Shown: positions 366 to 41,499 of the stretch, piece by piece
Numbering within the stretch: the stretch's first letter is position 1
Layout of the letters: the number at the start of each line of letters is the position of its first letter
Source: Candidatus Omnitrophota bacterium
GTDB taxonomy: Bacteria; Omnitrophota; Gorgyraeia; Zapsychrales; Zapsychraceae
Direction of reading: 5' to 3'
Assembly (NCBI GenBank): GCA_029261065.1
Contig: JAJDCB010000006.1
Span: 284 to 64,283 of the forward strand
Length of the DNA: 64,000 bases
Position numbers and translations under genes: made by a program
The notes under the pieces: generated by a model
Database searches by the model: none
What the model was told of the DNA's origin: nothing
What the model saw: the letters and a program-made list of their open reading frames with translations, nothing else

Positions 366-392
366 AGTTTTATCCTTTTTTTAAAAGCCGTA

Positions 393-6547: not shown

Positions 6548-6748
6548 TTAACCTCTGATGATTTTTCTGACCCTATTTTTCCCTTGCTTTTTAAGATTAA
6601 TAATTTTATCTCGCAAAACAGCTGCCATTTCATAATTTTCCACCTTAACGGCATTGTCTATTTGTTCTTCTAAATCAAAAAGCTGTTCTACCTTTTCTAA
6701 CTCTTGCTTTATCTGAGGATCAAACTTATTCATATCATAAAGTTTCAT
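6548..6748 (-). CDS. UVR-domain small protein
   Basis: The 66-aa ORF ends in a UvrB/UvrC-type UVR motif (YEMAAVLRDKIINLKKQ). Confidence 0.5.
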   Translation of the reverse strand: MKLYDMNKFDPQIKQELEKVEQLFDLEEQIDNAVKVENYEMAAVLRDKIINLKKQGKNRVRKIIRG

Positions 6749-6750
6749 GA

Positions 6751-7059
6751 TTAACCTCCTCTCGCCGTATAGGTTTCAAGACATCTCAAAAATTTGTAAA
6801 CTCGTTTATCTAAAATATAATAATAACGAATATTATTATCTTTATCACACGCCAACACACCAACATTTTTCAAAGCTGTTAGATGTTGGGAAACCGTTGA
6901 TTGCGCCACTTTAAGTTTCCTTTGAATACTTCCAACTGAAAGTCGCTTTTCATTAATTAAAACCATTATAATTCTCAACCTTACTGGATGAGCCATTATT
7001 TTTAGCATCCGTACAGAAAACTCAATATTATGTAACCTTACTTTCCTCATGATTCTCAC
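6751..7059 (-). CDS. ArsR/SmtB-family metalloregulator (HTH)
   Basis: MLKIMAHPVRLRIIMVLINEKRLSVGSIQRKLKVAQSTVSQHLTALKNVGVL is the canonical ArsR wHTH. Confidence 0.8.
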   Translation of the reverse strand: MRIMRKVRLHNIEFSVRMLKIMAHPVRLRIIMVLINEKRLSVGSIQRKLKVAQSTVSQHLTALKNVGVLACDKDNNIRYYYILDKRVYKFLRCLETYTARGG

Positions 7060-7423
7060 GCGCTCCCGTCATGTGACGCGATAAATTTTGATCAAGGTGT
7101 TCTAAAACACCTGTAACATCTTTATCATTTGTCCTACAGACTTTAATCCCAGAGTGAATCAAACTATTGAGCATCTTTCCCTTAATTTCAGGACTAATAA
7201 CAGCATCAATGTGTTGTTGTCGCATGGTTTGACGTGGACTTCCTGCAAGATGATCATGATGATGCCGATGTTTATTCTTAATGGTTCTTAAATAATGCAA
7301 GTTTGTATCATAGATAACAAAATAAGGCACATGGGCAAAGTTAGGCACGACCCTTGCCTCGTAACCCTCATTTGTTTTTGTTGGAATGCAGACTCGCATC
7401 TTAAACCACCTTTGTAATTTCAA
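7028..7423 (-). CDS. NifX/NifB-like dinitrogenase FeMo-cofactor-binding family protein (Nitro_FeMo-Co fold). The likely true start is the internal MRVCIPT near 7399.
   Basis: MRVCIPTKTNEGYEARVVPNFAHVPYFVIYD... matches the N-terminus of NifX/NafY/NifB-C domain proteins. It overlaps the ArsR gene by 32 nt, which suggests an operon. Confidence 0.55.
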   Translation of the reverse strand: MKLQRWFKMRVCIPTKTNEGYEARVVPNFAHVPYFVIYDTNLHYLRTIKNKHRHHHDHLAGSPRQTMRQQHIDAVISPEIKGKMLNSLIHSGIKVCRTNDKDVTGVLEHLDQNLSRHMTGARENHEESKVT

Positions 7424-7524
7424 ATATTAAAATATTCAAATATTACTTATCTCCTACTTTCATTATAAAATAGACCAATGATATGGGTATTCGCTAAAAT
7501 ACATAGAAACGTGCGTAGTTCTAC

Positions 7525-10500
7525 TTAAGAAAGAAGTAAGTCTACAATCAAAGGAAGGTGATCTGAGGCTACTTTATCGAGTTCTGTTTTAGAAACTTCT
7601 GCGTGGACAACGCTAACTTCTCCGCCAATAAAGACATGATCGATACGACCCACGGGATAATGACTAAACCACGTTGCCAAAGGACGATGATTATTTAAAA
7701 CATGTTGGGAGTCATGAAGTTTTTGGGTAATGCACCGGCATACGGGGGAACCTGGTAAGGCATTAAAATCTCCACACAAAATAATTGGACCTTCACAAGC
7801 ATGGTGTTCTAGCCAATCCGGTCCAAGTAACGCCTCAGCCTGCCTTAAACGCTCTAGACGTCGTAACCCAAGGTGCGTATTAATAACCTGTACTCTTATA
7901 TCATCAACGTTGATTGTAGTCCATATCGCCCCACGAGGCTCAAGATCTGGACGTCCAGGTAAAATAGGTAGTCGACCAGCATACATTGTTTTGATAGGAT
8001 ACCGACTAAGAATAGCATTACCATACCGTTCTTCTTCAATGCAAATAGCGGGATGAAAATGATACATCATCTCTAATTGTTTAGCAATAACATGGGGCTG
8101 GTTTATATCGCCTGTACGCGAACGATTCATATCTAATTCCTGCAGGGCAACAATGTCCGGTTCATGCCTGGCAATCACACGAGCAATCCGCTCTGGCGAT
8201 GTTTTTCCATCCATACCTCGACAACTATGAACATTGTAGGTCATGATACGAATCTTTTTCGTTTCTGGACTTATTGAAGAGGATTTCACAGAAAGCATAG
8301 ATTTCTTAGGTTTCATCCTTCCTAAATGTTGCAATGCTAGCTCCCTTAAATCTTTTGTCTTTAAATACGTTTTTTCTTTTGATAACGAAACAATATCTGC
8401 CGGAAGTAAAGTAAACGCATTTGTCTCCTCTGTTCCCACCCCTGCATGAGCTCCATTTTCAATAGGAAAACTTATCGGTGTCTGCCCTGGCCTCCATCCT
8501 GAAAAAGTAAAATCGCCAGCGTCTGGATGATGACAGATAGCAATCAAATCCTGTGTTACGTCGCTAAGATAAGGATGATTCTCTCCTAAAACTTCTTGTG
8601 CCTGCGCGGGTAAAATAAATTCGCCTCTTTCATTGAAAGCCCGCACTTGCCCCTCTTCTTCTGGAAACAAAACAAGAGGAATTTTGGCCTTATGTACAAG
8701 CTGACGAGAAAAAATGCATTTGTCTTCTTGATTTAGTTTCGTTGGCAGATAAATATTTCCCGTCGGCCCAATGGCCGTTACTGTAAGTTTATTCTGAGCA
8801 GCATGCTTTTGAGGAGAAAAAAGTTTTTGTAGATATGGACTTCCCAAATAACTTGCTCGATGAAATTGCACTCCTCGTCTTGTGGCTTGTTCTTGAAAAC
8901 ATTTATCCAGATCATCATCCAAACGTCCAGGTTCTGTTTTTTTGTTGGAATGCTTAAAAGCACTATAAACCTCTGTAACCGCCTCATGAACCCTTCTTCC
9001 ATATTCAACGGTGTAAGACAAGGTGTCTTCTTGACCATGGTCGGAATATATCCAAACATCGTAACTTCTTCGCGTAGAACTCATGGCATTTTTGTAAATA
9101 TCACCAATCGCTAAATCAATTCCTTTAAGAGCCCAATGAGCAAATTTTGTGGATGGTCCTCGACGATGGGCCTGTTCATCGAAGCCTAATAGATTTAAAT
9201 GAATAATAGGCAGACCTCTTGCAACATCAATCTTAACGCCAAGGGTTATCAGTTCTCGCAATAAAATACAAATCACAGCACGGGTGGGGACAAATTTAAA
9301 TTCTTTGATAAAGTTTTCTCCTTGAAACAATCCACCCAGAAAGTCAGCAAACCCTAAAACCAATTCCAAAATGATTAATAAGATAATACGTATCAAAGCC
9401 AAAAAATGGGTGAGGGCTAACACGATTAATTTAAAGACATTAACATCTTTCCATATCCGACTTAAACCCAATGAGACAGCACAAAAATGAGCTTCTTTGG
9501 CTCCCCCCTCATAAATATTCGAATAAGAACTCCCCCCCTCTAATAATCCTGTTTCCTGCTCTTTCAAACGTTGTTCAATTTTTTGGGCATCATCGCCATC
9601 AAACATCGTAAAAACTTTATTCTCGCTCTTGTCAAAATAAGAAAAAGCCGGAACAATTTGTTTAACACCATAAAATAATTCTCCTTGAACCGCAGGTGTA
9701 CTCGAAGGTAAACCTGTGTATAAAGGATAACTGTTATAATGTTGATTATTTAATAAACCTTTTAAAAAAGGCATTTCATTATTTTTAATAGCTTTTTGTA
9801 ATTGATGTCTCGAAAACCCATCAATTTGAATAAGAACCAAACCAGCCTTTGTCTCCTCCTCTTTGGAATGTGACAAATTAAGAAGACGCGCCGACCATTC
9901 GTGTTTATTGCACCATCGATTCCATTTTAAGATCCAATGCCTTTTTTTATCCTTTCTCGTCTTTTTAACATTAAAGGCCCTTTCACTAAAAGCGGCTTCA
10001 GAAGCATTTGTCAAATTTTTTGCCATATTCCATTCCGTCTTTATCCGAGACATACTGATTTTCCAAAGACTATTATGAATGTCTCGAGAGACAACGTTTC
10101 TGGACTTAACCTCATTGTAAAGGTTTATAACTTGCCCCGCGCAATGAACATTAGAATAATTCTGTGCTGATTGTCTCGCCGCCCTTTTTATCTTTTCCAT
10201 TTCAGAATGTGATTTGTGATAACACCAAGATAACGCTGATACAAATGTTTCTTGATGTTGTTCATGAATCAAACGGCCATTGAGACCGTCACGCAGGATA
10301 TCTCTGACACCTTGCGCATCAAGGGCAACGACAGGAACAGATGATGCCATAGCTTCTAAAAGAACAACGCCTTGCGTCTCACTCAACGAAGCAAAGGCAA
10401 AAACATTCATCGCATGATAACTATCCACTAATTGTTGATCTCTTAAAACGCCTGTAAAATGCAATCGATTTAAATCATCTTCCTTTAAAAAAACCTGCTT

Positions 10501-11241
10501 AATAACTTCTTGTGAAGGACCCTTACCCACAACAAGAAAATGAGCATCTTTTTTTTCTTTTAAAAACTGGGCGACGCATTGCGCGAGAAATTCTAAATTT
10601 TTCTCCGACGCCAAACGACCAACATGCCCCACAACAAAGGCCTCTTGAGGGATACCAAACTCTTCTCTTGTCTTTAAAACATCTGCATTTGCAAACTTAT
10701 TAGTATCAACTCCTGTTGGGATAACCTCTGTGGGCGTTTCAACACCTCGCGATTGTAAAATATCTTTAACACTACGCGTAGGAACGATAACCTGATCGGC
10801 AAGATTGGCATAGCCAGTAGAAAGCTCGATAACAAAACGTTTTATAAGATCATTATGAAAGGGAAGATAATGAATGTATTGTTCATACATCGTATGGTAC
10901 GTAAAAATGAGAGGAATGTTATATTGACCACTGAGACGAAGGGCTATATCACCTAATAAAAAGGGATGATGGCTGTGGACTATATCTGGTTTAAAATCGT
11001 GCATTAACTTTTCTAATAAACCTGGAATCGGAAGATTAATAGAAAAATCGGTATGATTACATTTTTGAATAGCTGGAATTCGAATAACGTCTTTTTCATC
11101 TCTCATCATCCCTTCAAAAGTAGGGGCGACAATAATCACTTGATGACCTTGTATCCTCAATTGAGAAGAAAAGGAACGAATAGATTCCTCTACTCCCCCG
11201 ACAATCGGCGTAAACGTATTTGTCATCATAAGAATTTTCAT
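7525..11241 (-). CDS. 1238-aa multidomain protein: N-terminal GT4 glycosyltransferase, central NPP-type (type I phosphodiesterase / nucleotide pyrophosphatase, alkaline-phosphatase superfamily) domain with a hydrophobic insertion, and C-terminal endonuclease/exonuclease/phosphatase (EEP) domain
   Basis: Residues 1-~400 are a GT4/GT-B glycosyltransferase (MKILMMTNTFTPIVGGVEESIRSF...). Residues ~460-900 carry LVLIQIDGFSRHQL, MPFLKGL, SSTPAV, HLNLLGFDEQAH and YSDHGQ, which match the PF01663 LVISLDGFR, MPNL, T-nucleophile and DHG motifs. A ~35-residue hydrophobic stretch (LIVLALTHFLALIRIILLIILELVLGF) sits in the middle. Residues ~960-1238 carry the EEP motifs (IMTYNVHSCRG, DIVALQELD, CGDFNALP, RIDHVF). 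Confidence 0.65.
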   Translation of the reverse strand: MKILMMTNTFTPIVGGVEESIRSFSSQLRIQGHQVIIVAPTFEGMMRDEKDVIRIPAIQKCNHTDFSINLPIPGLLEKLMHDFKPDIVHSHHPFLLGDIALRLSGQYNIPLIFTYHTMYEQYIHYLPFHNDLIKRFVIELSTGYANLADQVIVPTRSVKDILQSRGVETPTEVIPTGVDTNKFANADVLKTREEFGIPQEAFVVGHVGRLASEKNLEFLAQCVAQFLKEKKDAHFLVVGKGPSQEVIKQVFLKEDDLNRLHFTGVLRDQQLVDSYHAMNVFAFASLSETQGVVLLEAMASSVPVVALDAQGVRDILRDGLNGRLIHEQHQETFVSALSWCYHKSHSEMEKIKRAARQSAQNYSNVHCAGQVINLYNEVKSRNVVSRDIHNSLWKISMSRIKTEWNMAKNLTNASEAAFSERAFNVKKTRKDKKRHWILKWNRWCNKHEWSARLLNLSHSKEEETKAGLVLIQIDGFSRHQLQKAIKNNEMPFLKGLLNNQHYNSYPLYTGLPSSTPAVQGELFYGVKQIVPAFSYFDKSENKVFTMFDGDDAQKIEQRLKEQETGLLEGGSSYSNIYEGGAKEAHFCAVSLGLSRIWKDVNVFKLIVLALTHFLALIRIILLIILELVLGFADFLGGLFQGENFIKEFKFVPTRAVICILLRELITLGVKIDVARGLPIIHLNLLGFDEQAHRRGPSTKFAHWALKGIDLAIGDIYKNAMSSTRRSYDVWIYSDHGQEDTLSYTVEYGRRVHEAVTEVYSAFKHSNKKTEPGRLDDDLDKCFQEQATRRGVQFHRASYLGSPYLQKLFSPQKHAAQNKLTVTAIGPTGNIYLPTKLNQEDKCIFSRQLVHKAKIPLVLFPEEEGQVRAFNERGEFILPAQAQEVLGENHPYLSDVTQDLIAICHHPDAGDFTFSGWRPGQTPISFPIENGAHAGVGTEETNAFTLLPADIVSLSKEKTYLKTKDLRELALQHLGRMKPKKSMLSVKSSSISPETKKIRIMTYNVHSCRGMDGKTSPERIARVIARHEPDIVALQELDMNRSRTGDINQPHVIAKQLEMMYHFHPAICIEEERYGNAILSRYPIKTMYAGRLPILPGRPDLEPRGAIWTTINVDDIRVQVINTHLGLRRLERLRQAEALLGPDWLEHHACEGPIILCGDFNALPGSPVCRCITQKLHDSQHVLNNHRPLATWFSHYPVGRIDHVFIGGEVSVVHAEVSKTELDKVASDHLPLIVDLLLS

Positions 11242-24740: not shown

Positions 24741-25106
24741 TCATAGTTGTCTTTCAATAATCGGGATCAATTCTTCAATAATTTTATTCTTATCCATAAA
24801 AACAAATGTGCTGTTATCTCTTCTTCTTTTCTGATAAACTTCTACCCCTTCATTAGTCAAAATAATACTTTTACACTGCGCAAGCTTCTCACTAATACTC
24901 GCGGCGACTCTAAGACCTTCCAACTCTATATCAATAAGCGCTATATCTGGATGTTCCTTTAATGCTTCTTTAATACCTCGATCACCAGACGACACACCAA
25001 AAATTTTAACATTTACTATCTTTCTCTTAATATAGTTTATTAAACTCCTTCTAAACTCATCGTGACCATCAATAATTAAAATTTTTTTTATTTGTGTGCT
25101 AACCAT
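24741..25106 (-). CDS. stand-alone response-regulator receiver (CheY-like) domain protein
   Basis: KKILIIDGHDEF ... IALIDIELEGL ... IILTNEGV is the receiver-fold pattern at 121 aa. Confidence 0.6.
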   Translation of the reverse strand: MVSTQIKKILIIDGHDEFRRSLINYIKRKIVNVKIFGVSSGDRGIKEALKEHPDIALIDIELEGLRVAASISEKLAQCKSIILTNEGVEVYQKRRRDNSTFVFMDKNKIIEELIPIIERQL

Positions 25107-25233
25107 ACCCTACAACCCCTCCTTTTAACTATACTTTACCCTTAAGCAATCACTTTGAAAATTCGATGAATTACTTAAAATATTAGGTAGAACTACCCGT
25201 ATTTAGGAATAAGACTCTATAAGACTCTTAAAA

Positions 25234-25878
25234 TTAAGTTAAACTTTTAGAGATGGCGTATTTGACAAGGCCGGCTGTGTTTTTTATGCCGAGTTTTTCG
25301 GTGAGATTAAAACGATGATTTTCAACAGTGCGGATACTAATCTTTAACTTAGTAGCAATATTTTTATTAGCTAAACCTTTGGCAATCAATTTTAAAACTT
25401 GCAACTCTCGTTTCGTAAGAATTTCCTCACAAGGATCATCTTCTTCATCGATAGATCTTAAAAATCTATCCGTTAATAAAATCGATACATTAGGTGAGAC
25501 AAATTGCTTTCCCTTAAGCAAGGCCTTCATAGCCGTAATAAGATGATGACACGCTTCTTCTTTAAGAAGATATCCCGATGCCCCTTTAGACATTGCTCGC
25601 TTGAAGTGTTCGTGATCTTTTAACATGCTCAAAATAAGGACCCTTGTTTTCGGATATTTCTTACGGATATGTTCTAACGCCGCCAAACCATCCATCCTTG
25701 GCATGGAGAGATCAAGAATGATGAGATCACATTTTGATGCATTCAATATTTCTAAAAGCTCCTCACCATCTCGCGCCTCCGCGACCACCTTAAACGTGGG
25801 TTCCTTCTCAATAAGACTCCTTATACCCGCTCGAACAATATCATGATCATCTGCTAAAATAATTTTGTACTTAGCCAT
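25234..25878 (-). CDS. NarL/FixJ (LuxR-type HTH) response regulator
   Basis: Receiver motifs KIILADDHDIVR and DLIILDLSMP, then a GerE/LuxR HTH (LTKRELQVLKLIAKGLANKNIATKLKISIRTVENHR). Overlaps the upstream HK gene by 8 nt. Confidence 0.85.
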   Translation of the reverse strand: MAKYKIILADDHDIVRAGIRSLIEKEPTFKVVAEARDGEELLEILNASKCDLIILDLSMPRMDGLAALEHIRKKYPKTRVLILSMLKDHEHFKRAMSKGASGYLLKEEACHHLITAMKALLKGKQFVSPNVSILLTDRFLRSIDEEDDPCEEILTKRELQVLKLIAKGLANKNIATKLKISIRTVENHRFNLTEKLGIKNTAGLVKYAISKSLT

Positions 25879-27346
25879 TTTCTTTCCCTTTCATTTTAAT
25901 AGGAATATCTAAATGAATACTTGTTCCCTCTTTGGGTGATGAGCTTATATTAAATTTAGCTTTTAACATTTTAGCTCTTTCACGCATGGTCAACAATCCT
26001 AACCCTATCTCCTTACCTTTTTTTCGTCGATACCCACGGCCATTATCTTTGATCACAACAGACAATCTGTTCTTTTGTCTTTTCATTTGAATATCAACTC
26101 TCGATGCTCGCGCATGTTTGAAAATGTTGGCCAAGGCCTCTTGAACAATCCGATAAAGGTTAATCGATTCAGCTTCAAACTGAAGAGAATCAATAGGACC
26201 ATGACGTAATTTTATAAGAATCTTTTTATCTTTTTGTTTTAATTGTTCCACAAGATTATCGAGAGAAGCCGACAAACCAATAGAAGAAATGGTTGTTGGA
26301 CGCAATCTGTGCGCGATATGCCTTGTCTTTTCTATGATACTATCTAAATAACTCATGCTTTCTTTGCAAGCCTTCTTTATGACATTAGCATCTGCCGTAT
26401 TATCCATTGCCACGGCATAGATATTCATCTTTAAAGCAATCAAAGACTGGCCAAGATCATCATGGATATCTCGAGAAATCCGATTCCGTTCCGTATCCTG
26501 AGCCTGTATAATTTTCTGAGGTATCTCTTTAATCAATTCCTCTGATTTTTTTGCCTCAGTAATATCTTGACCTGAACTAATAACACCAATCATGCGTTTA
26601 TCTTTATCATTGAGAATCGTATTATGCCAAGCGATAAGTTTTTCTTTTCCTGATTTTGTTCTCACCACATTCTCATAGAATTCATTAACTTGAATTTTAC
26701 CAGCCATTATTTCTTGGAAAATGGTTTTAGTCTTTTCCTTGTTATCCTCAGGTAAAAAATGATCAAACCAATTCTTTCCTAAAATTTGATTCTCAGAATA
26801 ACCTAACAACTCTGTTGCCCTTTTATTAATATTAATCACTTCCCCATTCTTGTTAAGAACCAGCATCATAACGTTGGCGACATCAAAATATTTTTTTGCC
26901 TTGTCTCGTTCAGAGCGCAACTCTATCTCTATTTCTTTACGTTTCGTAATATCATGACGAATGGCCACATATTGATAAGGATTTCCTTTGTCATCAAAAA
27001 ATGGAACAATGGTTGTATCGACCCAATAATAAGAGCCATCTTTAGCTTTATTTCTTATCTCCCCCTTCCAAACGTTGCCCTTGCTAATAACACTCCACAA
27101 ATCCCGCATAAACTTTTTTGGGTGATAACCGGAGTTAATAATACGATGATCTTGACCAATCAACTCTTTCTTAGGATATTTTGAAAGTTCACAGAATTGA
27201 TTATTCGCATAAATAATTATTCCCGTTTGATCTGTTATGGCGACAATCGCAGATTCATCGAGAGCAGACTTAATATCGGATAACTCTTTAAAAGCCGCCT
27301 GCAGAGCTTCTTTAGTTTTACTATATTTTTTAACGTGAGGTTTCAT
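25871..27346 (-). CDS. cytoplasmic PAS-PAS sensor histidine kinase (HisKA_3 / NarX-type) partner of the NarL-type RR
   Basis: Two PAS-like modules, then the HisKA_3 H-box (RISRDIHDDLGQSL) and HATPase_c (KDNGRGY...GLGLLTMRERA). Confidence 0.8.
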   Translation of the reverse strand: MKPHVKKYSKTKEALQAAFKELSDIKSALDESAIVAITDQTGIIIYANNQFCELSKYPKKELIGQDHRIINSGYHPKKFMRDLWSVISKGNVWKGEIRNKAKDGSYYWVDTTIVPFFDDKGNPYQYVAIRHDITKRKEIEIELRSERDKAKKYFDVANVMMLVLNKNGEVININKRATELLGYSENQILGKNWFDHFLPEDNKEKTKTIFQEIMAGKIQVNEFYENVVRTKSGKEKLIAWHNTILNDKDKRMIGVISSGQDITEAKKSEELIKEIPQKIIQAQDTERNRISRDIHDDLGQSLIALKMNIYAVAMDNTADANVIKKACKESMSYLDSIIEKTRHIAHRLRPTTISSIGLSASLDNLVEQLKQKDKKILIKLRHGPIDSLQFEAESINLYRIVQEALANIFKHARASRVDIQMKRQKNRLSVVIKDNGRGYRRKKGKEIGLGLLTMRERAKMLKAKFNISSSPKEGTSIHLDIPIKMKGKENG

Positions 27347-27787
27347 GCGATCCCCAATCCGATCATCTTTTAAAAACGTTTATTGAGACACTAGAACAAG
27401 CTTATTTGAAGAGCCTCAAAAAAAACTTATCTTATAGTGTTGTACTTAAGTAATACAACATTTAATGGCTTTTGTAAAGGGTTATAAGGCCATGAAATTG
27501 AGTAGTTTTACTTACCCTAATCTTAGTATCGCTTAACGTCGTTTCTTTCAGTTTTTCAACATTAGTATCTTTCAATGACTTTATTTTGTCTTTAAAGAAA
27601 TCCCACCCAGCAAAAACATATGTTGTAGGAAGTAATATGAATAATCCCAACAGAATCAAAAACGTATATTTATCAACATAACCATCCCACCTCCTTTTCT
27701 TTATGCCTCACCCTTTAGATCTTATTTACTTCAAAGAATGACCAATAATGTTGAAAATCTTCATTTTCTCATTAAAATAGAGATATC

Positions 27788-29920
27788 ATGTCTTCTCCCC
27801 CCTCAAAAGTCCTTTTAAAAATATTGAATATCATTAAGATGCTTCCAAAAGAAATCTGGGCATTTCTTGCTCTCACTTTGTTAAGCTTTCTATTTCTTCT
27901 TTCCTATGTCAATTTAACACCAGTGGTTGATGATGACTTCTTTTTTTCAAGCCAAGATGCCCAATTTAAATCCGAACATGAAATTGACAAACTTTTTCTT
28001 CGCAAAGATACACAACTTATTATCTCCGCATCAGGAGATATTTATGAACCCACATATATAGAGAAGGTTCGTGAATTAAGTCAGACCGTTCTTGATATTG
28101 AAGGTGTCATTAGTGTAAATAGCCTCACTCACTTTGGCCCCAAAAATGTTGATGATGCCCTAGCCTCCCCCCTATGGAAACGCCTTATCATCTCGGATGA
28201 TCAAAAGTCTTCTAATTTAATTATTCTCTTAGAAGAAAAACATCAAAGTCTCATCGTTAACAAAATTGAAACGCTCCTCAAAGAAAAATCCGCTCAAGAT
28301 TTCGAACTACATGCCGCCGGCCTTCCCTATGTTATCGAATTAATTCGTCGCAATTTAACACGCGATCTAAAAGTCTTTAGCTTACTCGCCTTTCTTATTT
28401 TCGGTTGCATCATTTTTAGCCTCTTTCGCTCAAAGGCTATTCTTTGCGGAACACTACTCTCTTGTCTTAACGCCTGTATCTGGACATACATGCTCACTTC
28501 ATTAACAAATATTCCGATCGGTTTATTGACAGCAACACTTGGAACCATAATCTTTATCATGACATTATCACACATCATTTTTTTGACATACAATTGGCGA
28601 AAGGCTATGCACGCACAAAATAATGATGCGGTAAACTTTGCCATAAAACGCACATTTCCACCTTCCTTTTGGAGCATGTTTACAACAATGCTTGGATTCT
28701 TAAGCCTAATGTCTGTGCCCGCCAAGCCTTTACGTGATTTAGGGGCATCTGGGGTTATCGGATGCCTTGTCACGATCTTTGTCGCCTACGCTTTTTTCCC
28801 GGCCTTCTTAAAAGTGGCAAAACTTCATATCAAAAAAGAAAGTAAAATTGAGAAGGGCCAATTCAATCTATTTCATTTCTTCTGTGATCATAATCAAGCG
28901 ATCAAAATTATTATATTTGTTGCCTGCTTTCTAGCACTTCCTGGTGTTTGGATGATTGACTCTGATCCTAGTCTTCTTTCCTATTTCTCAAAGAAAAGCG
29001 AAATTCATCAAGGATTTTCGTATATCGATCGTAACGGTGGTAGCAGTCCTCTCATCCTTGTAATCAAATCAAAAGATGATCTACCTTTAACAGCGGCTCA
29101 ACCTTATCAAAAAATGTGGGATTTACAAACGGCATTAGAACAACATCGTTCGGTAGGATCGGTTATTTCTTTACCCGTTCTCATTGCTCAAGCCGAGAAA
29201 AATACTCTTGGCTGGATTCTTCCAAGAAATATGCTTCTTAATGCATTAACTTCCCCTGATTACGATGAGATTGCAAAAAGTTTTGTAACAGATGATCGGC
29301 TCCATGGACTTTATCTTCTGCGTATGAATGAAAAGTATCGGACACTCTCGCGTGTTGACATCGTTGAAGAAATTAAGGAAGTGGCGCGCGTACACAACTT
29401 CGTACCAGAAATTGTAGGTGGCGTTTATAACTTACAAGGGCACCTTGCCAAACTTGTTCACTCCAGTCTTATCCTCGGCATTGGCAAACTTCTCATTTTC
29501 TTTGGCATCATTGTTTTTCTCATCTCCCGCTCAATTTCAATTACTCTTGGTGTTGTATCAAGCATAACAATCATCCCGTTGACCGTCTTTGGCCTCATCG
29601 GCATATATCGTGTTCCCTTAGATATCGTAGCCGCCCCTGCCTGCAGTGTAGCCATCGCCATGGGGGTTGATGCTATGATTCATATGATTCAAAGTTATAG
29701 GCATCTTAAAGACTGGAATAAGGTTCTTGAAGAAATATGGCAGCCTGTGCTAACCGCCTTACTGGTCGTCTGTACCGGATTCTCTATTTTCCTCTGTTCA
29801 ACTTTCCCCCCCACCCAACGCTTTGGAACAATCATTCTCGTTGGATCATTCCTGGCTGGATTAATCGCCCTTTTTATTATGCCGATGTTATCTCAACTGT
29901 TTGCCCGCCATAACAAATAA
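27788..29920 (+). CDS. MMPL/RND-superfamily exporter (12 TM, two large periplasmic loops)
   Basis: 710 aa with two TM bundles (about 180-330 and 540-700) separated by soluble loops. This is the MMPL/HpnN-like RND topology. Confidence 0.65.
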   Translation: MSSPPSKVLLKILNIIKMLPKEIWAFLALTLLSFLFLLSYVNLTPVVDDDFFFSSQDAQFKSEHEIDKLFLRKDTQLIISASGDIYEPTYIEKVRELSQTVLDIEGVISVNSLTHFGPKNVDDALASPLWKRLIISDDQKSSNLIILLEEKHQSLIVNKIETLLKEKSAQDFELHAAGLPYVIELIRRNLTRDLKVFSLLAFLIFGCIIFSLFRSKAILCGTLLSCLNACIWTYMLTSLTNIPIGLLTATLGTIIFIMTLSHIIFLTYNWRKAMHAQNNDAVNFAIKRTFPPSFWSMFTTMLGFLSLMSVPAKPLRDLGASGVIGCLVTIFVAYAFFPAFLKVAKLHIKKESKIEKGQFNLFHFFCDHNQAIKIIIFVACFLALPGVWMIDSDPSLLSYFSKKSEIHQGFSYIDRNGGSSPLILVIKSKDDLPLTAAQPYQKMWDLQTALEQHRSVGSVISLPVLIAQAEKNTLGWILPRNMLLNALTSPDYDEIAKSFVTDDRLHGLYLLRMNEKYRTLSRVDIVEEIKEVARVHNFVPEIVGGVYNLQGHLAKLVHSSLILGIGKLLIFFGIIVFLISRSISITLGVVSSITIIPLTVFGLIGIYRVPLDIVAAPACSVAIAMGVDAMIHMIQSYRHLKDWNKVLEEIWQPVLTALLVVCTGFSIFLCSTFPPTQRFGTIILVGSFLAGLIALFIMPMLSQLFARHNK

Positions 29921-30005
29921 TAAAATCCTTTCATTTTTTACATTTTTTTTACATCTTTTTACCTCCCTCTGACAACTCACATTTTATATTGGCTATACTC
30001 AAATT

Positions 30006-32174
30006 GTGAGACAAATACAAACCGTTAAAAGGAGAAAAAAGATGAAAATCCAAACATCAACCAAACTGCTTCTTGTGATTGCCGCCTTACTTACTGGGCT
30101 TTCACAAAATGAAGCCTTTGCCGGGCAAACAACACGAATTGATTTCCAGCAAAGAATGAACAACAAAAGTGTACAATTCGAACCCTACCACCAATTGGCC
30201 CAACCCCAAAATCAAGTAAAAAACAACGCCGAGGTAAAAATCTTGCACTTCGACAATTCTGCTTACGTTATCCACGATGCCAAATATACGGCAAGTCTTG
30301 ATGAAGACGTTGTGACTGTAAATGGAAAAGTTACCTTTGAAACGTTCCGCAAAAAAGGCATAACCTTAATTCCTATTGTAGACACTCAAGTAGGATTAAT
30401 GGATGTCAAACTTAATAGAGGTAAAGCGACTGTCACATCAAAAAATAAGCAGTATTACCTTATTGTTCAAAAGCCGGGTAAACATGTCTTGGAAGTTGAA
30501 TATTTAAAGAAGGCCATTCGTGAAGAAAAACATGGCCCAGGTAATTTTAATATTTCTGTACTGCCTGCCCCTATTTCACAATTTGAAATGGTCATTCCAG
30601 AAAAAGAAGTACAAATCATTGTTGATCCTGCGATAAAAACAGAAACAGAACGAACCGAAAATAAAACAACAGCTTGGGCTATCTTACCGAATACGCAAAA
30701 TATTGCTGTACATTGGACACGCGCCCTACCTCAAGATGAACTCGAAGAAGAAGAACAAGATCCAAAAATCTATGTCGAAACAACAACACACGCAGCTGTT
30801 GGTGGTGGTGTCATTCGTAGCATTGCTCATATTAGCTACTCTATTTTGCAAGCCCCTGTGTCAAGCTTTCGTATAGCAATGCCTGCAGATGTCAGTATTT
30901 TGGATGTCAAGGGAATGGATTTACGTGATTGGAGAAGTAAAAAATCTGGCAATAAACAAATTCTTGAAGTACTCCTCAATATGGAACGCAAAGGATCTTA
31001 TGCGTTAAACCTAACCTATGAACGAGCCATCAAAGAAGGCTCCTCTGTTGCTCAAATGCCGTGGACTAAGGCCCTTGGTGCTAAACGTGAAAATGGATTT
31101 TATGGTATTTCAGCAAGTACGAATGTGGAGTTGACTATTGAAGAAGCTAAACGTGCAACAAAGATAGATGCCCGTCAATTGCCATCAACATATTCTAGCC
31201 TCTCTAATCAACCTGCTTTACTGGCCTTTAAATACTTAAATCATCCCTTTGAAGTTGCCATTGAAATTACCCGACATGAAGAATTACCCGTCTTGATTGC
31301 AGCTGTGGATCAAGCTGACCATTTAACCTTACACACACAAGATGGAAAAATATTAACGAAGTCCATTTACCATATTAGAAATAATGTTAAGCAATATCTT
31401 CGCCTAACCATGCCAGAAGGGTCCAGCATTTGGAGTGCTTACGTTGCGGGTAAGCCTGTTAAGCCTGCACAAGATCAAAAAGGACACGTTCTCATTCCTT
31501 TAAAAAAATCACAACAAACACAACAAAACATCAGAAGTTACCCAGTCGAAATTGTGTATCTAAATAAAGGAAATGAAATGAGCTCCATGGGAAAGCTGGA
31601 TCTCGATTTACCTAAAATTGATATTCCCATTAATGCCTTTTATTGGTCCGTCTATTTTCCACATGACTATCTCTATTACAAATTTAGTGGTGATTTAAAA
31701 GAAATTGATGATGCCAGCCACCCATTCGCCGCTGTTAGCAATTTTGTATCTCAAGGCAATGTCTTTAATAATTACGTTAGCCGTGGTGTTCAAGGTCGTT
31801 TAAAATCCGCGACAGATGACATCGGCCAACAATTTGATCCTGGAAACACAAGTGGTGTCCTAGTCTCAAGAAAAAACTCTTATGCTTCGCAGTCAACTGT
31901 ATCAAAGGGTGTTCTTCCCATCAAAATTAATGTTCCTCGGGATGGACAACTGTATCAATTTTCCAAACTACTCGTAATTGAAGGAGAAAGCCCTCACCTC
32001 AGTGTAAAATATTCCTCCTTTTTTGCAAAGGCCTGGAAGCTGCTTATTCCTTTTTTAGCTTGCATGATCGTTGTGCTTATTTTTATAAAGATATATATGT
32101 TTATTTATAAGCCAAAAAAGAAGAAAAACAAAACAACCACTAAAGAGCAAACACATGATGAAAGGACAGTATAA
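30006..32174 (+). CDS. large secreted protein with a C-terminal membrane anchor, unknown function. Likely start at the ATG at 30042.
   Basis: SD AAAGGAG at 30025-30032 precedes the MKIQTSTKLLLVIAALLTGLSQNEAFA signal peptide. It ends in the TM segment LLIPFLACMIVVLIFIKIYMFIY followed by a KKKK stop-transfer. No recognisable domain. Confidence 0.5.
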   Translation: MRQIQTVKRRKKMKIQTSTKLLLVIAALLTGLSQNEAFAGQTTRIDFQQRMNNKSVQFEPYHQLAQPQNQVKNNAEVKILHFDNSAYVIHDAKYTASLDEDVVTVNGKVTFETFRKKGITLIPIVDTQVGLMDVKLNRGKATVTSKNKQYYLIVQKPGKHVLEVEYLKKAIREEKHGPGNFNISVLPAPISQFEMVIPEKEVQIIVDPAIKTETERTENKTTAWAILPNTQNIAVHWTRALPQDELEEEEQDPKIYVETTTHAAVGGGVIRSIAHISYSILQAPVSSFRIAMPADVSILDVKGMDLRDWRSKKSGNKQILEVLLNMERKGSYALNLTYERAIKEGSSVAQMPWTKALGAKRENGFYGISASTNVELTIEEAKRATKIDARQLPSTYSSLSNQPALLAFKYLNHPFEVAIEITRHEELPVLIAAVDQADHLTLHTQDGKILTKSIYHIRNNVKQYLRLTMPEGSSIWSAYVAGKPVKPAQDQKGHVLIPLKKSQQTQQNIRSYPVEIVYLNKGNEMSSMGKLDLDLPKIDIPINAFYWSVYFPHDYLYYKFSGDLKEIDDASHPFAAVSNFVSQGNVFNNYVSRGVQGRLKSATDDIGQQFDPGNTSGVLVSRKNSYASQSTVSKGVLPIKINVPRDGQLYQFSKLLVIEGESPHLSVKYSSFFAKAWKLLIPFLACMIVVLIFIKIYMFIYKPKKKKNKTTTKEQTHDERTV

Positions 32175-32368
32175 ATTTTGGTTACATGCTATTAAACGGG
32201 TTTTAATATTTACAGCCCTTATAGTGTTTAACTCATAACTTCTAGAGCTATTATGACACGGTCTAAATCTTTACAATTAAATTTTAACCTTGCGAGAGGC
32301 TTGCCAAAGAATATGATCAGTGTGATAATAGCTCTAGAAAATCTTAACAGTAGAATCAAAGAAGACCC

Positions 32369-34240
32369 ATGAATCCAAAACATATGAAATTCCGACTTTG
32401 GCTTATTTTTGCCTTAGTTATCGTTGTTCCAAGCTTTGTTTTAAGCTTCCTAGCCTTAAGAACAAACCTTGTGGAAGAAGCCGTTATTGAAAAACAACTG
32501 GAAGAAATCGTGGATAAAGAACTACAAAATATTACCTCTATTGTTAAAGATGAACTTAAAAAAATTGAAACGGAATTAGTATCCCTTTTAGAATCAGCTT
32601 TTCATTCAAAAGAAAAGCTTAATCTTATCTCTCAACGATCAAGACTCATCGATATTCCATTTTTTTTAAATACTCAAAAAGACATTCTTTGGCCTAATCG
32701 GTCCCAAACTCTAACGGCTGATGACGAAAAATTCCTAAAATGGCATCGGGAATTTTTTAAAGATAAAGAATCAACTCCTGTATTTAAAAATATCGCTTTT
32801 GTATACAAAGACATTATTTTAGAAGAAACCTATGCCAGCTCCTCCTATATTGGAAGAAAGTTAAATAGCGTCAAAAATTCAAAAGCACCCGTTGATGATA
32901 TTGAAAATCAATTAGCCTTACAACAATTTGAATCTGATGTCCGTGTCCGATCAAAAGTTTATAAAAAGGCCAGAATGGATAAACAGCAACTGGCTACGCG
33001 AAATGTTGAATCAACGAAAGGCTTCGGGCAACAGAAAAGATACAATCAGAAATTTCAGCCGCGACAATCAAAGTTTGTGTCTGAAGCTGTTTTATTCAGT
33101 GACATTATTAGTCAAAGTAACTCAGGCATTATCCCTAAATTGGTTGAGGAAAGATTGCAGCTTTTGTTCTGGAGTAAAAATCAAAAAGGAGAAATCGTTG
33201 GTTGCATCATTAACCGAGAAGAAATGATCGAGCATATTGTTAAAATGTTACCCGATGCCCAAATCTATTCTAAGGAACGCATCATAACGATCCTTGATGA
33301 GCTTGGTCAACCTCTCATCGCTCCCAAAGAAGGCGTTAAACATGATTGGCGCTCTCCTTTTATTGCTCATGAGCTTAGCGTCTATTTACCCCATTGGGAG
33401 GTGGCCGCTTACTTAACAGATCCAAATTCTATTTTAACGCGGGCGAATACAAAAGTTATCTTAATCGGTTTTGTCGTCTATGGACTTGTTCTCTCTATTG
33501 TGATGGGGGGCATTTTTGTTTTACGATCCATGTATGAACAAGTTCTTTTAGCCCAACAAAAAACAACATTTGTCGCAAACGTCTCTCATGAATTAAAAAC
33601 GCCTCTCACCTCCATCCGCATGTTTGCAGAGATGTTAAAAGAAAATCGTCAACCTGATGAGAAAAAACGTCGGCACTATCTGGATATTATGGTTTCAGAG
33701 TCCGAACGTCTGACAAGGCTTATCAATAATGTCTTAGATTTTGCATCATTAGGACAAAAAAATAAAAGATATCATTTTGCTATCGTTGATATTGTTGAAC
33801 TTTGTAAAGACGTTGTAGAAGGTCAACGTCCTCGCTTAGAACATAATGGCTTTCAAATCACTTTCAAATCTCGTCATAAACACTTAGAAATTTCTGTTGA
33901 TTCTGAGTCCATAAAACAAGTTTTATTGAATCTGTTAAGTAATGCCGAAAATTATTCTGATGATGAAAAAAGCATCGAACTCGAGATAGATGATGATGAT
34001 AAAGATGTATATATTTACGTTAAAGATCTTGGCATTGGAATATCTTCCAAATTTAAAGACAAAATATTTGATGAATTTTATCGCGTTGATGATCAGTTAA
34101 CGTCCAGAAAAAGTGGGACGGGACTTGGATTAACAATTGCCCAAAGGATCATGAAAGATCATCATGGGGCTATCGACTATATATCGCGTGAACAAAAGGG
34201 TAGCATTTTTCGAATCAATATTCCCAAACAAGAGGTTTAG
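32369..34240 (+). CDS. sensor histidine kinase with a large periplasmic sensing domain (HisKA + HATPase_c)
   Basis: N-terminal TM, a ~330-aa periplasmic region and a second TM, then the H-box VSHELKTPLTSIRMFAEML and G-boxes (DLGIGI, GTGLGLTIAQ). Confidence 0.85.
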   Translation: MNPKHMKFRLWLIFALVIVVPSFVLSFLALRTNLVEEAVIEKQLEEIVDKELQNITSIVKDELKKIETELVSLLESAFHSKEKLNLISQRSRLIDIPFFLNTQKDILWPNRSQTLTADDEKFLKWHREFFKDKESTPVFKNIAFVYKDIILEETYASSSYIGRKLNSVKNSKAPVDDIENQLALQQFESDVRVRSKVYKKARMDKQQLATRNVESTKGFGQQKRYNQKFQPRQSKFVSEAVLFSDIISQSNSGIIPKLVEERLQLLFWSKNQKGEIVGCIINREEMIEHIVKMLPDAQIYSKERIITILDELGQPLIAPKEGVKHDWRSPFIAHELSVYLPHWEVAAYLTDPNSILTRANTKVILIGFVVYGLVLSIVMGGIFVLRSMYEQVLLAQQKTTFVANVSHELKTPLTSIRMFAEMLKENRQPDEKKRRHYLDIMVSESERLTRLINNVLDFASLGQKNKRYHFAIVDIVELCKDVVEGQRPRLEHNGFQITFKSRHKHLEISVDSESIKQVLLNLLSNAENYSDDEKSIELEIDDDDKDVYIYVKDLGIGISSKFKDKIFDEFYRVDDQLTSRKSGTGLGLTIAQRIMKDHHGAIDYISREQKGSIFRINIPKQEV

Positions 34241-34242
34241 AT

Positions 34243-34935
34243 ATGGCAACAAAAATATTAGTAATTGAAGATGATGTCTCTATTCTAACGGGCATTGTTG
34301 ATTTATTACATTCTGAAGGTTATGAAACCTATTCTGCAACTAACGGTCAGAAAGGTATTCAAATTTACAAAGATACCTCTCCTGATTTGGTCTTGTTGGA
34401 TATCATGATACCTGAGAAGAGTGGTTACGATGTTTGTCGAGAGATTCGAAAAAAGGATGAACGCATTCCCATTATCATGTTAACGGCTAAAGACCAAGAA
34501 ATTGATAAGGTCGTTGGGCTCGAGGTGGGAGCTGATGATTACGTTGTAAAACCATTTGGTGTAAAAGAATTGTTGGCAAGAATTCGATCGGTCTTACGAA
34601 GATCACAAATAAATCCTATGCTAAAAGAATCTGATGAACCTATTGTCTTTGGGGATGTACGTATTGAACCAAAACTTTTAAAAGGGTTTAAAAAGAAAAA
34701 GGAGTTTGAGATTTCTTTACGTGAAATTCAACTCCTTCGTCTCTTCACTCAATATCCAGATGAGGCTATTGATAGGGCTACAATTTTAGAAAAAATCTGG
34801 GGCATTAGTTATCAAGGAACAACGCGCACCCTTGATCAACATATCGTTAAGTTACGTCAAAAAATCGAAGATGACCCAAGCCAACCAAAATTTATTCAAA
34901 CGGTCCATGGGATTGGATATCGTTTTAAAAAATAA
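34243..34935 (+). CDS. OmpR/PhoB-family response regulator
   Basis: Receiver (KILVIEDD, LVLLDIMIPEKSG) plus a winged-helix trans_reg_C domain (TVHGIGYRFK). It starts 3 nt after the HK stop. Confidence 0.9.
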   Translation: MATKILVIEDDVSILTGIVDLLHSEGYETYSATNGQKGIQIYKDTSPDLVLLDIMIPEKSGYDVCREIRKKDERIPIIMLTAKDQEIDKVVGLEVGADDYVVKPFGVKELLARIRSVLRRSQINPMLKESDEPIVFGDVRIEPKLLKGFKKKKEFEISLREIQLLRLFTQYPDEAIDRATILEKIWGISYQGTTRTLDQHIVKLRQKIEDDPSQPKFIQTVHGIGYRFKK

Positions 34936-36768: not shown

Positions 36769-37776
36769 CTATGCATATTTTAATTTTTTGAGATAATTAA
36801 ACCCTACTAATCGTTGATGCTGCTCATCCCAAAGACGAAAAGTCAATGACTTAAAACTTGTCAGTAGAGTAATCGGCTTGATTTCCCGAAACATAGCGTT
36901 TTCATTATAACACTTTTCTAGAAAATAGTTAGGAATACGTGGGGTTAGATGATGGATGTGATGATAGCCAATATTTCCGGTAAACCACTGTAATATCCTA
37001 GGTAATTTTAGAAAAGAACTCCCTTTTAAAGCTTCTGTGACATAATCCCATTTTTCATGTCGTTCCCAATAAACACCTTCAAACTGATGCTGCACATAAA
37101 ACAACCAAACGCCCAAGGAAGCTGCCATCGCTAAAATAGGTAGTTGAATCAAAACATACGTTTTAAATCCTATCAAAAGACTTAAACTCGCGGCTAAGAT
37201 AACCACCCCCAAATTCGTTAAGTGAACACTTTTTATGCTTTTTGAACTCGCTCCTTTTGCCGGTAACCGATGAGAAATAAGAAAAAGAATGCTTGGTCCA
37301 ATAAGAAACAAACAAATGGGATTACGTGCAAAACGATATTTAATACGTGTCCAACGATCAGCTTTAAGGTATTCCTCGACTGTCAATGTCCAAACATCAC
37401 CCCATCCACGCTTATCTAAATTACCCGCTTGCGAATGATGCACAGCATGTTCATGCCGCCAGTATTGATATGGTGTAAATGTTAAAACGCCTGTAACAAA
37501 ACCCCAAAAGTTATTCGCTTTTTGTGATTTAAAAAATGAACCATGCCCGCAGTCATGAAAAATGATAAAAGCACGCACCAAAAGTCCTGCAGCAATAACG
37601 GTTAAAGGCAACATGAGCCAAAAAGAAACACTCAATGCCTTTATCATCACATACCACAACAAAACATACGGTATAAGCGTGTTAAGTAATTGGCCTATAC
37701 TTTTTGACCTCTGAGGATATTGATACTTGGCCACAATTTTTTGCCAATCCTCTATATTTGAAGGGAAATCACTCAT
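36769..37776 (-). CDS. membrane fatty-acid (acyl-lipid) desaturase
   Basis: Three His boxes are present: HDCGH, WRHEHAVHH and HHIHHL. N-terminal TM helices. Confidence 0.8.
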   Translation of the reverse strand: MSDFPSNIEDWQKIVAKYQYPQRSKSIGQLLNTLIPYVLLWYVMIKALSVSFWLMLPLTVIAAGLLVRAFIIFHDCGHGSFFKSQKANNFWGFVTGVLTFTPYQYWRHEHAVHHSQAGNLDKRGWGDVWTLTVEEYLKADRWTRIKYRFARNPICLFLIGPSILFLISHRLPAKGASSKSIKSVHLTNLGVVILAASLSLLIGFKTYVLIQLPILAMAASLGVWLFYVQHQFEGVYWERHEKWDYVTEALKGSSFLKLPRILQWFTGNIGYHHIHHLTPRIPNYFLEKCYNENAMFREIKPITLLTSFKSLTFRLWDEQHQRLVGFNYLKKLKYA

Positions 37777-40221: not shown

Positions 40222-41499
40222 CTAAAAACTTTTCTTATATTTCAAGTAGAGCTTATCATCATTCACTGCTTTTTGCTTAGGATCCAGATCGTCCAAACTC
40301 TGCGTCTGCTTAACTTCGCGCTCAACTCCCACCGATAATTCATCGGTCACTTGATATTCCCCTTTAATCGTTTGTTTTTCTGTTATGATTTGGTTTTCCG
40401 TAATTTGTCGCTCCACCCCATAACCAATATCTAAATTTTCAGTGACAACTTTCTTAGCCTCTATCCCCTTCGTATCTTTCTCAAAAGTCACTGATACATC
40501 ATATATTCCCAATTCATCAGTAAATTTATTCGTTTTTCCTGCAAAAAAATAGTAATCAATGAAATCTTTGGTTAATTCTTTAGAGGAAATCAACCCAGTA
40601 TCCAAAGAACTTTCTACACTTTGCCAACTCTTACCTGTAGCCAACATAACCATCAATTTTTCACGGCTAAATGAAGGCTCCGATGACAAAGTTAAATTTG
40701 ACTTCTCTAACACCCCGTTTAGCCCCAGCTGAATCTTTGTTTTCTCAACCTTTGCCTTACCCGATATATTAAAACTTGGTTGACTTAAAACCCCACTAAA
40801 ATTAATTTTACCGTTAATCTCTTTTATTGTTGATTTATGCGCTTTCAAAGATCCTTCACGAATTGTAATATTACCAAATAATTGAACGTCTCTTTTAATA
40901 TTTTTCAAAACAATGTCTAGATGCAACGGTGTCTGCATTAAAATAAAACCTTTATATAAAAACTTATTAATATTTAAATCACCAACCACACGCGGCTCTA
41001 GATAATCACCCTTTACATACAAATCAATATTCGTCACATCGCCTTTTATCGGTATAAGCCTCTTTAAATCTGGAAGATAACTCAGCACCTCATTGACATT
41101 AAATCCATTCGAATAAATATTAAAATCAAACTTCCGTTTCTGAAGAGTTCCCGAGATGATGATGGATTCAGATTCGGAAAAATTGATACGTGTATTTTCT
41201 AACTTTAGAAAAGCATTTTTATAATTAAGCTTTTCAACCTTTACAGTGAGTTGTTGAATTTTGATAATCGTACCAGAGGGGAGCTCTTGAATATTTGTTA
41301 TTTCAATATTTTTTAACGAAATTCCACGAGCAATGGTACCTGTTACACTCTTAAAGGTAATATTGTTTCCATAAGAATATTTCGAAATAAGAAACTCAAG
41401 AGTTTTTTGACTACCTGATGTCGTAAATAAGACAATGTAAATGACCCCAGTAATTATAGATAGGAAAATAACAATACATATAAGAATTTTTGTTTTCAT
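40222..41499 (-). CDS. N-terminally anchored beta-rich envelope protein, possibly short AsmA/TamB-like
   Basis: Single N-terminal TM (ILICIVIFLSIITGVIYIVLF) followed by a long beta-strand-rich periplasmic sequence. The assignment is tentative. Confidence 0.3.
   Translation of the reverse strand: MKTKILICIVIFLSIITGVIYIVLFTTSGSQKTLEFLISKYSYGNNITFKSVTGTIARGISLKNIEITNIQELPSGTIIKIQQLTVKVEKLNYKNAFLKLENTRINFSESESIIISGTLQKRKFDFNIYSNGFNVNEVLSYLPDLKRLIPIKGDVTNIDLYVKGDYLEPRVVGDLNINKFLYKGFILMQTPLHLDIVLKNIKRDVQLFGNITIREGSLKAHKSTIKEINGKINFSGVLSQPSFNISGKAKVEKTKIQLGLNGVLEKSNLTLSSEPSFSREKLMVMLATGKSWQSVESSLDTGLISSKELTKDFIDYYFFAGKTNKFTDELGIYDVSVTFEKDTKGIEAKKVVTENLDIGYGVERQITENQIITEKQTIKGEYQVTDELSVGVEREVKQTQSLDDLDPKQKAVNDDKLYLKYKKSF

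Follow-up and report, generated by a model that had tools for sequence, protein, structure and literature searches.

In a 64,000-nucleotide stretch of a Candidatus Omnitrophota assembly (GCA_029261065.1, contig JAJDCB010000006.1, positions 284 to 64,283), hereafter the window, four plus-strand genes encode an MMPL/RND transporter, an exported membrane-anchored protein (listed as a 722-amino acid (aa) open reading frame (ORF) and here termed X722), a sensor histidine kinase, and an OmpR/PhoB-family response regulator. The last three of these genes, together with an operator/promoter upstream of X722, probably constitute a self-activating operon of three genes. Judging from gene order in other genomes, the four genes do not form one conserved system. 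A functional unit of X722, the kinase, and the regulator is supported because the closest relative retains the gene order from X to the regulator, because the operator upstream of X722 is conserved across the kinase family, and because a distant lineage independently places an X-family gene behind the same operator and beside the same two-component system (TCS).

The four ORFs form a plus-strand island, with minus-strand genes on both sides and the rest of the window almost entirely on the minus strand (Table 1). The GC content of the genome is about 0.37, and the window sequence is identical to that of a contig assembled from run SRR15505515. The gap between the MMPL gene and X722 (counted from the ATG at 30042) is 121 bp, the spacer between X722 and the kinase gene is 194 bp, and the regulator gene starts 2 nt past the kinase stop codon. 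An earlier note on this DNA had described the island and named the four products as an MMPL/RND exporter, an anchored exported protein with a lysine-rich tail and no nameable domain, a kinase with a periplasmic sensor of about 330 aa, and an OmpR-type regulator. The ORF coordinates, hydropathy, Pfam, and NCBIfam bear out this description.

Upstream of X722 is a putative response-regulator operator with three direct hexamer repeats, spaced 11 and then 10 bp apart, followed by a TGACAA box and a TATACT hexamer that may act as the core promoter (Table 1). Regulators of the OmpR/PhoB family bind tandem direct hexamers with 11-bp phasing. The triple-hexamer match at 29937-29963 is unique within the window. 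Elsewhere, 29 kinase-family loci (30 with the window), which range in GC content from 0.33 to 0.66, have this architecture ahead of the first gene of the unit. The consensus across these loci is gcTTTACAAtTtTTTTACAAtcCTTTTACncCCCggTGACAAc. In the 30 aligned sites, the TGACA(A) box is followed, 19–20 nt after TGACA, by a TAnnnT hexamer that mostly has a TGn extension (TGnTAnnnT). When a position weight matrix was built from 25 unique sites with the window excluded, the window site (29931-29976) scored 29.2 bits, compared with 8.5 bits for the next best site in the 64 kb, 7.6 bits for the best of 50 shuffles used as a control, and 5.4 bits for the best site in 39 loci that have an X-family gene and lack the TCS. 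The matrix scan found no operator upstream of the MMPL gene or elsewhere in the window apart from the weak 8.5-bit site (57655-57700), which lies inside a minus-strand ORF (57643-57918), has no plus-strand gene downstream, and was rejected as a chance match. On the minus strand, the segment 29937-29953 reads TGTAAAAAAAATGTAAA. This sequence (TGTAAA-N5-TGTAAA) exactly matches TGTWAH-N5-TGTWAH, the consensus operator of WalR/VicR (PMC4168254).

The kinase belongs to a family in which the sensor is conserved and the first gene of the locus varies. Kinase residues 1–380 have 28 database homologues (about 34% identity; sensor homology 1e-50 to 1e-108), and a metagenome scan with an alignment of the sensor alone added 69 kinase-family loci. 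An OmpR-type regulator lies beside the kinase in 60 of 76 loci, and many of the remaining loci are on short contigs. Among the 40 loci in which the sequence upstream of the kinase extends for 1.3 kb or more, 28 have an exported ARPP-1 (PF20208) gene directly upstream, and other loci have a vWA or VIT-vWA protein in this slot. All of the first-gene products examined (ARPP-1, vWA, VIT-vWA, and X) have a signal peptide or an N-terminal transmembrane segment. The ARPP domain has been predicted to be an enzyme that acts on sugar moieties and is sometimes exported (Iyer et al., 2022; PMC9503650). Some loci have combinations of genes behind the same operator, including vWA and VIT-vWA (L096/L097 4315-10850; the related L098 is cut at its upstream end), vWA and a 191-aa protein with no Pfam match (L112 3225-7287), and a 74-aa ORF with ARPP-1 and vWA (L042 5140-10607). 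X722 does not appear to be related to these other cargo proteins, as the hhalign probability for VIT-vWA was 0.2% and BLAST searches against ARPP-1, vWA, and other cargo were blank except for the X' homologue described below. The window has no second X-family gene, no second kinase of the same type, and no ARPP-1 homologue (HMM and tblastn searches of the 64 kb).

The association between X-family genes and this TCS is found in two lineages. In locus L040, which has the closest relative of X722 (P0002), the same operator architecture is followed by X, the kinase, and the start of the regulator. The X and kinase proteins are both 54% identical to those of the window, and the sensor is 48% identical. 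In a distant lineage, locus L044 has the operator, ARPP-1, the kinase, the regulator, a second copy of the operator, and then an X-family gene that is truncated by the contig end (30% identity to X722 across 394 residues, E 6e-60). Three other loci of this distant group, which come from one high-GC population (L050, L061, and L084), have, after the regulator, an operator that is slightly degenerate (TTTCAC...TTTTACA...TTTTGCC...TCTGACAAC) and then a full-length X-family gene, the product of which has a signal peptide and a C-terminal transmembrane segment. The X proteins of this lineage (X') are 29–30% identical to X722, which groups with Omnitrophota orthologues (40–55% identity) and not with X'. 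Their kinases (41–42% identical to that of the window) are no closer to the window kinase than those of loci with ARPP-1 only (44–45%). The association therefore appears to have arisen twice, or the TCS became re-associated with a resident X gene after transfer. Either history would argue for a functional link between X and the TCS.

For the kinase, HisKA (7e-22) and HATPase_c (4.5e-23) both score above their gathering scores and together span residues 397–621, with H407 in the motif SHELKTPL. For the regulator, Response_reg (2.2e-30) and Trans_reg_C (8.2e-24) were identified, and the residues D10/D11 and D53 are present. The pair thus has the domains and residues of a class I HisKA kinase and an OmpR/PhoB-family regulator. 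Phosphotransfer from the kinase to the regulator, as well as regulator binding at the operator, is predicted from the co-occurrence of the operator and the kinase family in 30 loci. The kinase, for which the database gene call begins at the second ATG (618 aa), has transmembrane segments at residues 12–30 and 364–382 according to hydropathy, with about 330 extracytoplasmic residues between them. Pfam identified neither HAMP nor PAS in the kinase, and the sensor domain has no Pfam match, which is also true for seven sensor domains of the family. The AlphaFold2 (AF2) model (predicted local distance difference test (pLDDT) 75) has the first transmembrane segment, a long helix to residue 75, two alpha/beta modules (about 81–141 and 233–349) with a charged helical region of low confidence between them, and a second transmembrane helix (352–424) that is continuous with the DHp domain. 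Foldseek found matches to the kinase core and none to the sensor. The secondary structure may be read as a double PAS/Cache-like arrangement, which is a reading of the model and not a result. In NCBIfam, the kinase core scores best with PnpS, WalK, and PhoR (HK_WalK, 202 bits, cutoff 725; phoR_proteo, 186 against 334). The best models for the regulator are YycF/WalR (top), MtrA, RpaB, and PhoB, all of which score below cutoff (resp_reg_YycF, 222.9 against 340; PhoB TIGR02154, 205 against 296).

X722 likely starts at ATG 30042 (710 aa) instead of GTG 30006, because AGGAG is present at 30031-30035, the database gene call is also 710 aa, and the predicted -10 hexamer places the transcript start at about the GTG. 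The N-terminus is signal-like (MKIQTSTKLLLVIAALLTGLSQNEAFA, then G), and the C-terminus has one transmembrane segment (residues 667–685 of the 710-aa form by hydropathy) followed by KPKKKKNK. A 425-aa TamB-domain protein encoded on the minus strand (40222-41499) is consistent with an outer membrane and thus a diderm envelope, and X722 is therefore assigned tentatively to the periplasm, with its anchor in the inner membrane. X722 has no Pfam or NCBIfam family, and neither do 39 homologues (for Pfam, 40 members in total, E ≤ 0.1). At least 160 homologues at 40–55% identity were found, almost all in Candidatus Omnitrophota metagenome-assembled genomes (MAGs), and every homologue that carries a source name is a "hypothetical protein". 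When 1.84 billion cluster representatives were searched with the family profile, 5286 relatives were identified (each representing a cluster at 50% identity), including 1956 at 1e-30 or better. Many of these (among P0152-P0296) are 1.5–2.7 thousand residues long and have two to nine tandem copies of a module of about 330 residues (profile positions about 255–600). Pfam and NCBIfam gave no family for six of these giant relatives. The invariant polar motifs of the X722 family (RERE-GPG-F, RDW, LLAFKY, HEE-PV, and RNNVKQ) suggest that a specific interaction or activity is conserved.

The AF2 model of X722, based on a 40-sequence alignment, reaches a mean pLDDT of 78.9, and 385 of its residues score at least 90 (domains in Table 1). 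The top Foldseek matches in PDB are to ribophorin I/Ost1 (6s7o_E, 5e-10; 6ezn_A, 2.7e-8). Further matches include integrin alpha chains, PIG-T, M1-aminopeptidase chains, and ITIH1. Across all of these matches, identity is 6–16% and TM-scores are low. A sequence-profile search of PDB with the X722 alignment found nothing. A different conserved context for the X722 family is present in L035 and L039 (about 6100-10800), two non-Omnitrophota MAG contigs with distant homologues (26–29% identity). These homologues are flanked by a protein that reads by eye like an ECF-type sigma factor, and by paralogous proteins of about 330 aa that seem to have prepilin-like N-termini (LPLLTRAREASRRTSCANNLKQ).

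Table 1. Coordinates of the genes, regulatory elements, and X722 domains.
Feature	Position	Strand	Detail or basis
MMPL/RND (HAE3-like) transporter	27788-29920	+	Pfam MMPL
Putative response-regulator operator	29937-29963	+	TTTACA 29937-42, TTTACA 29948-53, TTTACC 29958-63
Putative core promoter	29970-29999	+	TGACAA 29970-75 (-35-like), 18-nt spacer, TATACT 29994-99 (-10-like)
722-aa ORF, X722	30006-32174 as listed (GTG start)	+	ORF list
20-nt inverted repeat, long hairpin	32240-59 / 32320-39	+	95% complementary, 60-nt loop
Sensor histidine kinase	32369-34240	+	Pfam HisKA + HATPase_c
OmpR/PhoB-family response regulator	34243-34935	+	Pfam REC + Trans_reg_C
X722, three beta-sandwich domains	residues about 75-555		AF2 model
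X722, disordered Ser/Gln/Gly/Asn-rich linker	residues 558-624		AF2 model
X722, short conserved beta segment	residues 636-658		AF2 model
X722, transmembrane helix, then Lys-rich tail	residues 659-689		AF2 model

The gene content, the synteny counts, and the joint conservation of the operator and this kinase family are shown by the comparisons above. We infer that the regulator binds the operator, that it activates rather than represses, and that the three genes are co-transcribed; the membrane topology and the role of X722 given here are likewise predictions. In the proposed mechanism, the conserved periplasmic domain of about 330 aa would sense an extracytoplasmic cue, with the second transmembrane segment running straight into the DHp helix. 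The activated kinase would phosphorylate the regulator, which would then bind the three tandem TTTACA hexamers abutting the TGACAA box and activate the X722 promoter. Transcription would start near 30005 and lead to the production of X722, and read-through past the spacer hairpin would yield more kinase and regulator, resulting in positive autoregulation. X722 itself would be exported by Sec, remain anchored in the inner membrane through its C-terminal helix, and display three beta-sandwich domains in the periplasm. It would act as the local output of the system, in the slot held by exported ARPP-1, vWA, or VIT-vWA proteins in related operons.

The spacer between X722 and the kinase gene contains a long hairpin (32240-32339) with a fold z-score of -4.6, which is unique in the window. 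The hairpin encloses a sigma-70-like match (32301-32329; TTGCCA-17-GATAAT, preceded by TG), and L040 has a non-homologous GC-rich hairpin (z-score of -2.7) at the same place. The hairpin may act as a partial terminator or an mRNA stabilizer, and together with the enclosed promoter-like sequence could set a high ratio of X to kinase and regulator or provide basal expression of the latter two. Rfam searches of the locus and of the whole window produced no credible match and no family at gathering score, and no tRNA genes were found in the 64 kb.

Several observations weigh against the self-activating three-gene operon. The exact gene order of the window occurs in only one other genome, on a contig of 4.7 kb (L040). 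At least 35 X722-family loci have no such TCS or operator, and the link is therefore specific to the lineage of the window. The hairpin and the sigma-70-like match may mean that X722 and the kinase-regulator pair are separate transcripts, in which case X722 would belong to the regulon and not to the operon. No intrinsic terminator is predicted after the MMPL gene, such that read-through from this gene is possible. The distance from TGACAA to the -10 hexamer (18–20 nt) is long for a standard -35/-10 pair, and co-occurrence is the sole basis for pairing the operator with the regulator.

Among the alternative explanations, one is that X722 is an accessory co-sensor that modulates the kinase, as YycH and YycI do for WalK. 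This is consistent with the position of the X722 gene directly upstream of the kinase gene, the anchoring of X722 in the same membrane with a large periplasmic domain, the recurrence of the X-kinase association in a second lineage, and the resemblance of the regulator and the operator to those of WalR. In addition, the top Foldseek match of the kinase is a WalK-YycH model, although this match comes from the kinase core. However, the kinase sensor is conserved across the family even though ARPP-1 (28 of 40 loci), vWA, and VIT-vWA proteins fill the slot elsewhere, and most X722-family genes occur without the kinase. Moreover, in the second lineage a separate promoter, located after the regulator gene, precedes X', as is typical of a target gene. 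X722 is read as an output rather than a co-sensor because unrelated exported proteins fill the cargo slot across the kinase family, and a co-sensor role is considered unlikely.

Alternatively, the adjacency of X722 and the TCS may have no functional meaning, with the TTTACA repeats being a generic AT-rich promoter element. The neighborhoods of X722-family genes are indeed highly variable among 39 loci (one subclade adjoins MetK, AhcY, and PfkA), and T-rich repeats are not rare at the GC content of this genome. Nevertheless, the 46-nt architecture scores far above the best shuffle (29.2 against 7.6 bits), is unique in the 64 kb, and occurs always with the kinase family in loci of widely different GC content (0.33–0.66). 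The retention of the X-kinase-regulator order at 54% protein identity and the operator-X' arrangement in a second lineage also make a chance association quite improbable.

It is slightly harder still to accept that the unit is a divergent Pho-type (PhoR/PhoP-like) phosphate-starvation system with X722 in the Pho regulon, a possibility to which we assign little weight. In its favor, PnpS, WalK, and PhoR are the models that the kinase core matches best in NCBIfam, and the top regulator models include PhoB. In Bacillus subtilis, PhoP boxes are direct repeats of TT(A/T/C)ACA at 11-bp phasing, which TTTACA fits. However, the PhoR and PhoB scores given above are far below the equivalog cutoffs, and the kinase lacks a cytoplasmic PAS domain and instead carries a large, conserved periplasmic domain, which is dispensable for PhoR-type sensing. 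Furthermore, no pst or phoU genes were seen beside the unit, either in the window or in the annotated related loci.

The remaining alternative concerns the MMPL gene. The MMPL protein matches PF03176 in two stretches (1.1e-19, 71.1 bits against a gathering score of 20.5) and has 10 hydrophobic segments in a crude hydropathy scan. It resembles the HAE3 RND transporters (e.g., HpnN), as it passes the Pfam threshold and aligns with TIGR00921 HAE3 (1e-39), but it falls below the cutoffs of both subfamily models (136 bits against 351.9 for TIGR00921 and 43 bits against 751.9 for TIGR03480 HpnN). Its orthologues, like those of X722, are from Omnitrophota. The gene is conserved across this phylum in variable contexts. 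A genome scan gave 39 loci with X722 relatives, and tblastn with the MMPL protein, kinase, and regulator of the window placed no orthologue beside any of them; the MMPL gene likewise adjoins kinase-family genes in none of 76 loci. A different gene lies upstream of X in L040, and the neighbors of the MMPL orthologues in L118 (71% identity) and L119 (60% identity) are unrelated, with no X, kinase, or regulator within 8 kb. In the window, the operator lies between the MMPL gene and X722, and the MMPL gene is therefore placed outside the regulated unit. These patterns indicate that it is an unrelated resident neighbor.

The earlier note had proposed that all four genes form one system, in which the MMPL protein and X722 are an exporter and its partner and the TCS controls the pair or senses the exported substrate. 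The four genes are adjacent and co-directional, with a gap of 121 bp and no predicted terminator after the MMPL gene, and both the MMPL protein and X722 are envelope proteins; yet with the MMPL gene missing from all X722-family and kinase-family loci compared, the conserved operator separating it from X722, and a tandem beta-sandwich model of X722 that is unlike known RND partners, this proposal is already largely refuted by synteny and has become extremely improbable. The part of it that stands is the grouping of the anchored protein with the kinase and the regulator. A lack of synteny elsewhere and a non-transport fold were what the note itself had named as evidence against a four-gene export system; the four-gene order was absent from the other loci compared, and no transport-related fold was recovered by AF2 and Foldseek.

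The surroundings of the island have some other features. A second, unrelated two-component cluster is located on the minus strand (24741-27346), directly upstream of and divergent from the MMPL gene, and encodes a double-PAS HisKA_3 kinase (491 aa), a LuxR/GerE-type regulator (214 aa), and a stand-alone REC protein (121 aa). The 440-bp intergenic region between the PAS kinase and the MMPL gene (27347-27787) has a 65-aa ORF with a TTG start on the minus strand (27462-27659). Its hydrophobic N-terminus is signal-like (MILLGLFILLPTTYVFAG), such that it may encode a small exported protein, or nothing. Downstream of the island, a minus-strand gene (36769-37776) encodes a DesA-like delta-5 fatty-acid desaturase (NCBIfam, 445 bits, just under the cutoff of 500). 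The GC skew is negative throughout the window (1-64000) and nears zero only over 30–36 kb, which corresponds to the region of plus-strand genes.

Taken together, a tempting four-gene "export system" gives way to a testable three-gene unit with a concrete 46-nt operator/promoter. This provides a first regulatory handle on a protein that is conserved across the Omnitrophota homologues found and has no annotation. It also defines a two-component family with about 70 metagenomic loci, in which the sensor has no Pfam match and the regulated cargo varies, and the operator could serve for regulon prediction in complete genomes. A broader and more doubtful possibility is that the X722 family, with X722 as its founding member, is a large unnamed envelope family and a direct, recurrent target of an undescribed TCS family with a WalR-like operator, which would deploy exported periplasmic or surface proteins (ARPP-1, vWA, VIT-vWA, and X722) upon an envelope or contact cue. 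Omnitrophota are ultra-small and possibly host-dependent. If true, this possibility could mean control of envelope remodeling or attachment in these bacteria.

Comparisons with known systems place the unit and its cargo as follows. X722 shares with ribophorin I/Ost1 a type I topology, with a signal peptide, tandem beta-sandwich ectodomains, and a single C-terminal transmembrane helix. However, the identity is 10–13%, the global root-mean-square deviation is about 19 Å, and the TM-scores are 0.18–0.31. Pfam Ribophorin_I has no match in any of the 40 X722-family members (E ≤ 0.1), and no STT3/AglB-like gene was seen in the annotated X722 neighborhood. The resemblance thus appears to be one of fold and architecture alone, with no evidence of homology or shared function.

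The WalRK system of Firmicutes (also known as YycFG or VicRK) is similar in having a class I HisKA kinase with an OmpR-family regulator, a direct-hexamer operator with an N5 spacer that the reverse complement of the window operator fits, an operon that co-encodes a membrane-anchored extracytoplasmic protein, and exported envelope proteins as targets. In addition, YycF is the best-scoring NCBIfam model for the window regulator. However, both window proteins score far below the WalK and YycF equivalog cutoffs. The WalK architecture (transmembrane segment, extracellular domain, transmembrane segment, HAMP, PAS, DHp, and CA) is not reproduced, since the window kinase lacks HAMP and PAS and has a sensor of about 330 aa with no Pfam match, in comparison with an extracellular domain of about 150 aa in WalK. 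The WalR operator has two hexamers, compared with three hexamers and a TGACAA box in the window. No similarity between X722 and YycH or YycI was detected, and the organism belongs to another phylum and likely has a diderm envelope. In its mode of action the unit would resemble WalRK or PhoPR-type systems, but by scores and domain architecture it does not qualify as one of them.

The nearest relatives of the window unit are the ARPP-1-kinase-regulator operons met here in metagenomes, which to our knowledge have not been described; literature searches likewise gave no account of the window system. The window unit shares with these operons the kinase family (sensor 33–48% identical), the adjacent OmpR-type regulator, and the promoter architecture with triple TTTACA hexamers and TGACAA. 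The difference is in the first gene, which encodes an exported ARPP-1 in those operons and X722 in the window. The unit is accordingly an ordinary kind of TCS with an uncharacterized sensor and cargo, and overturns no known principle.

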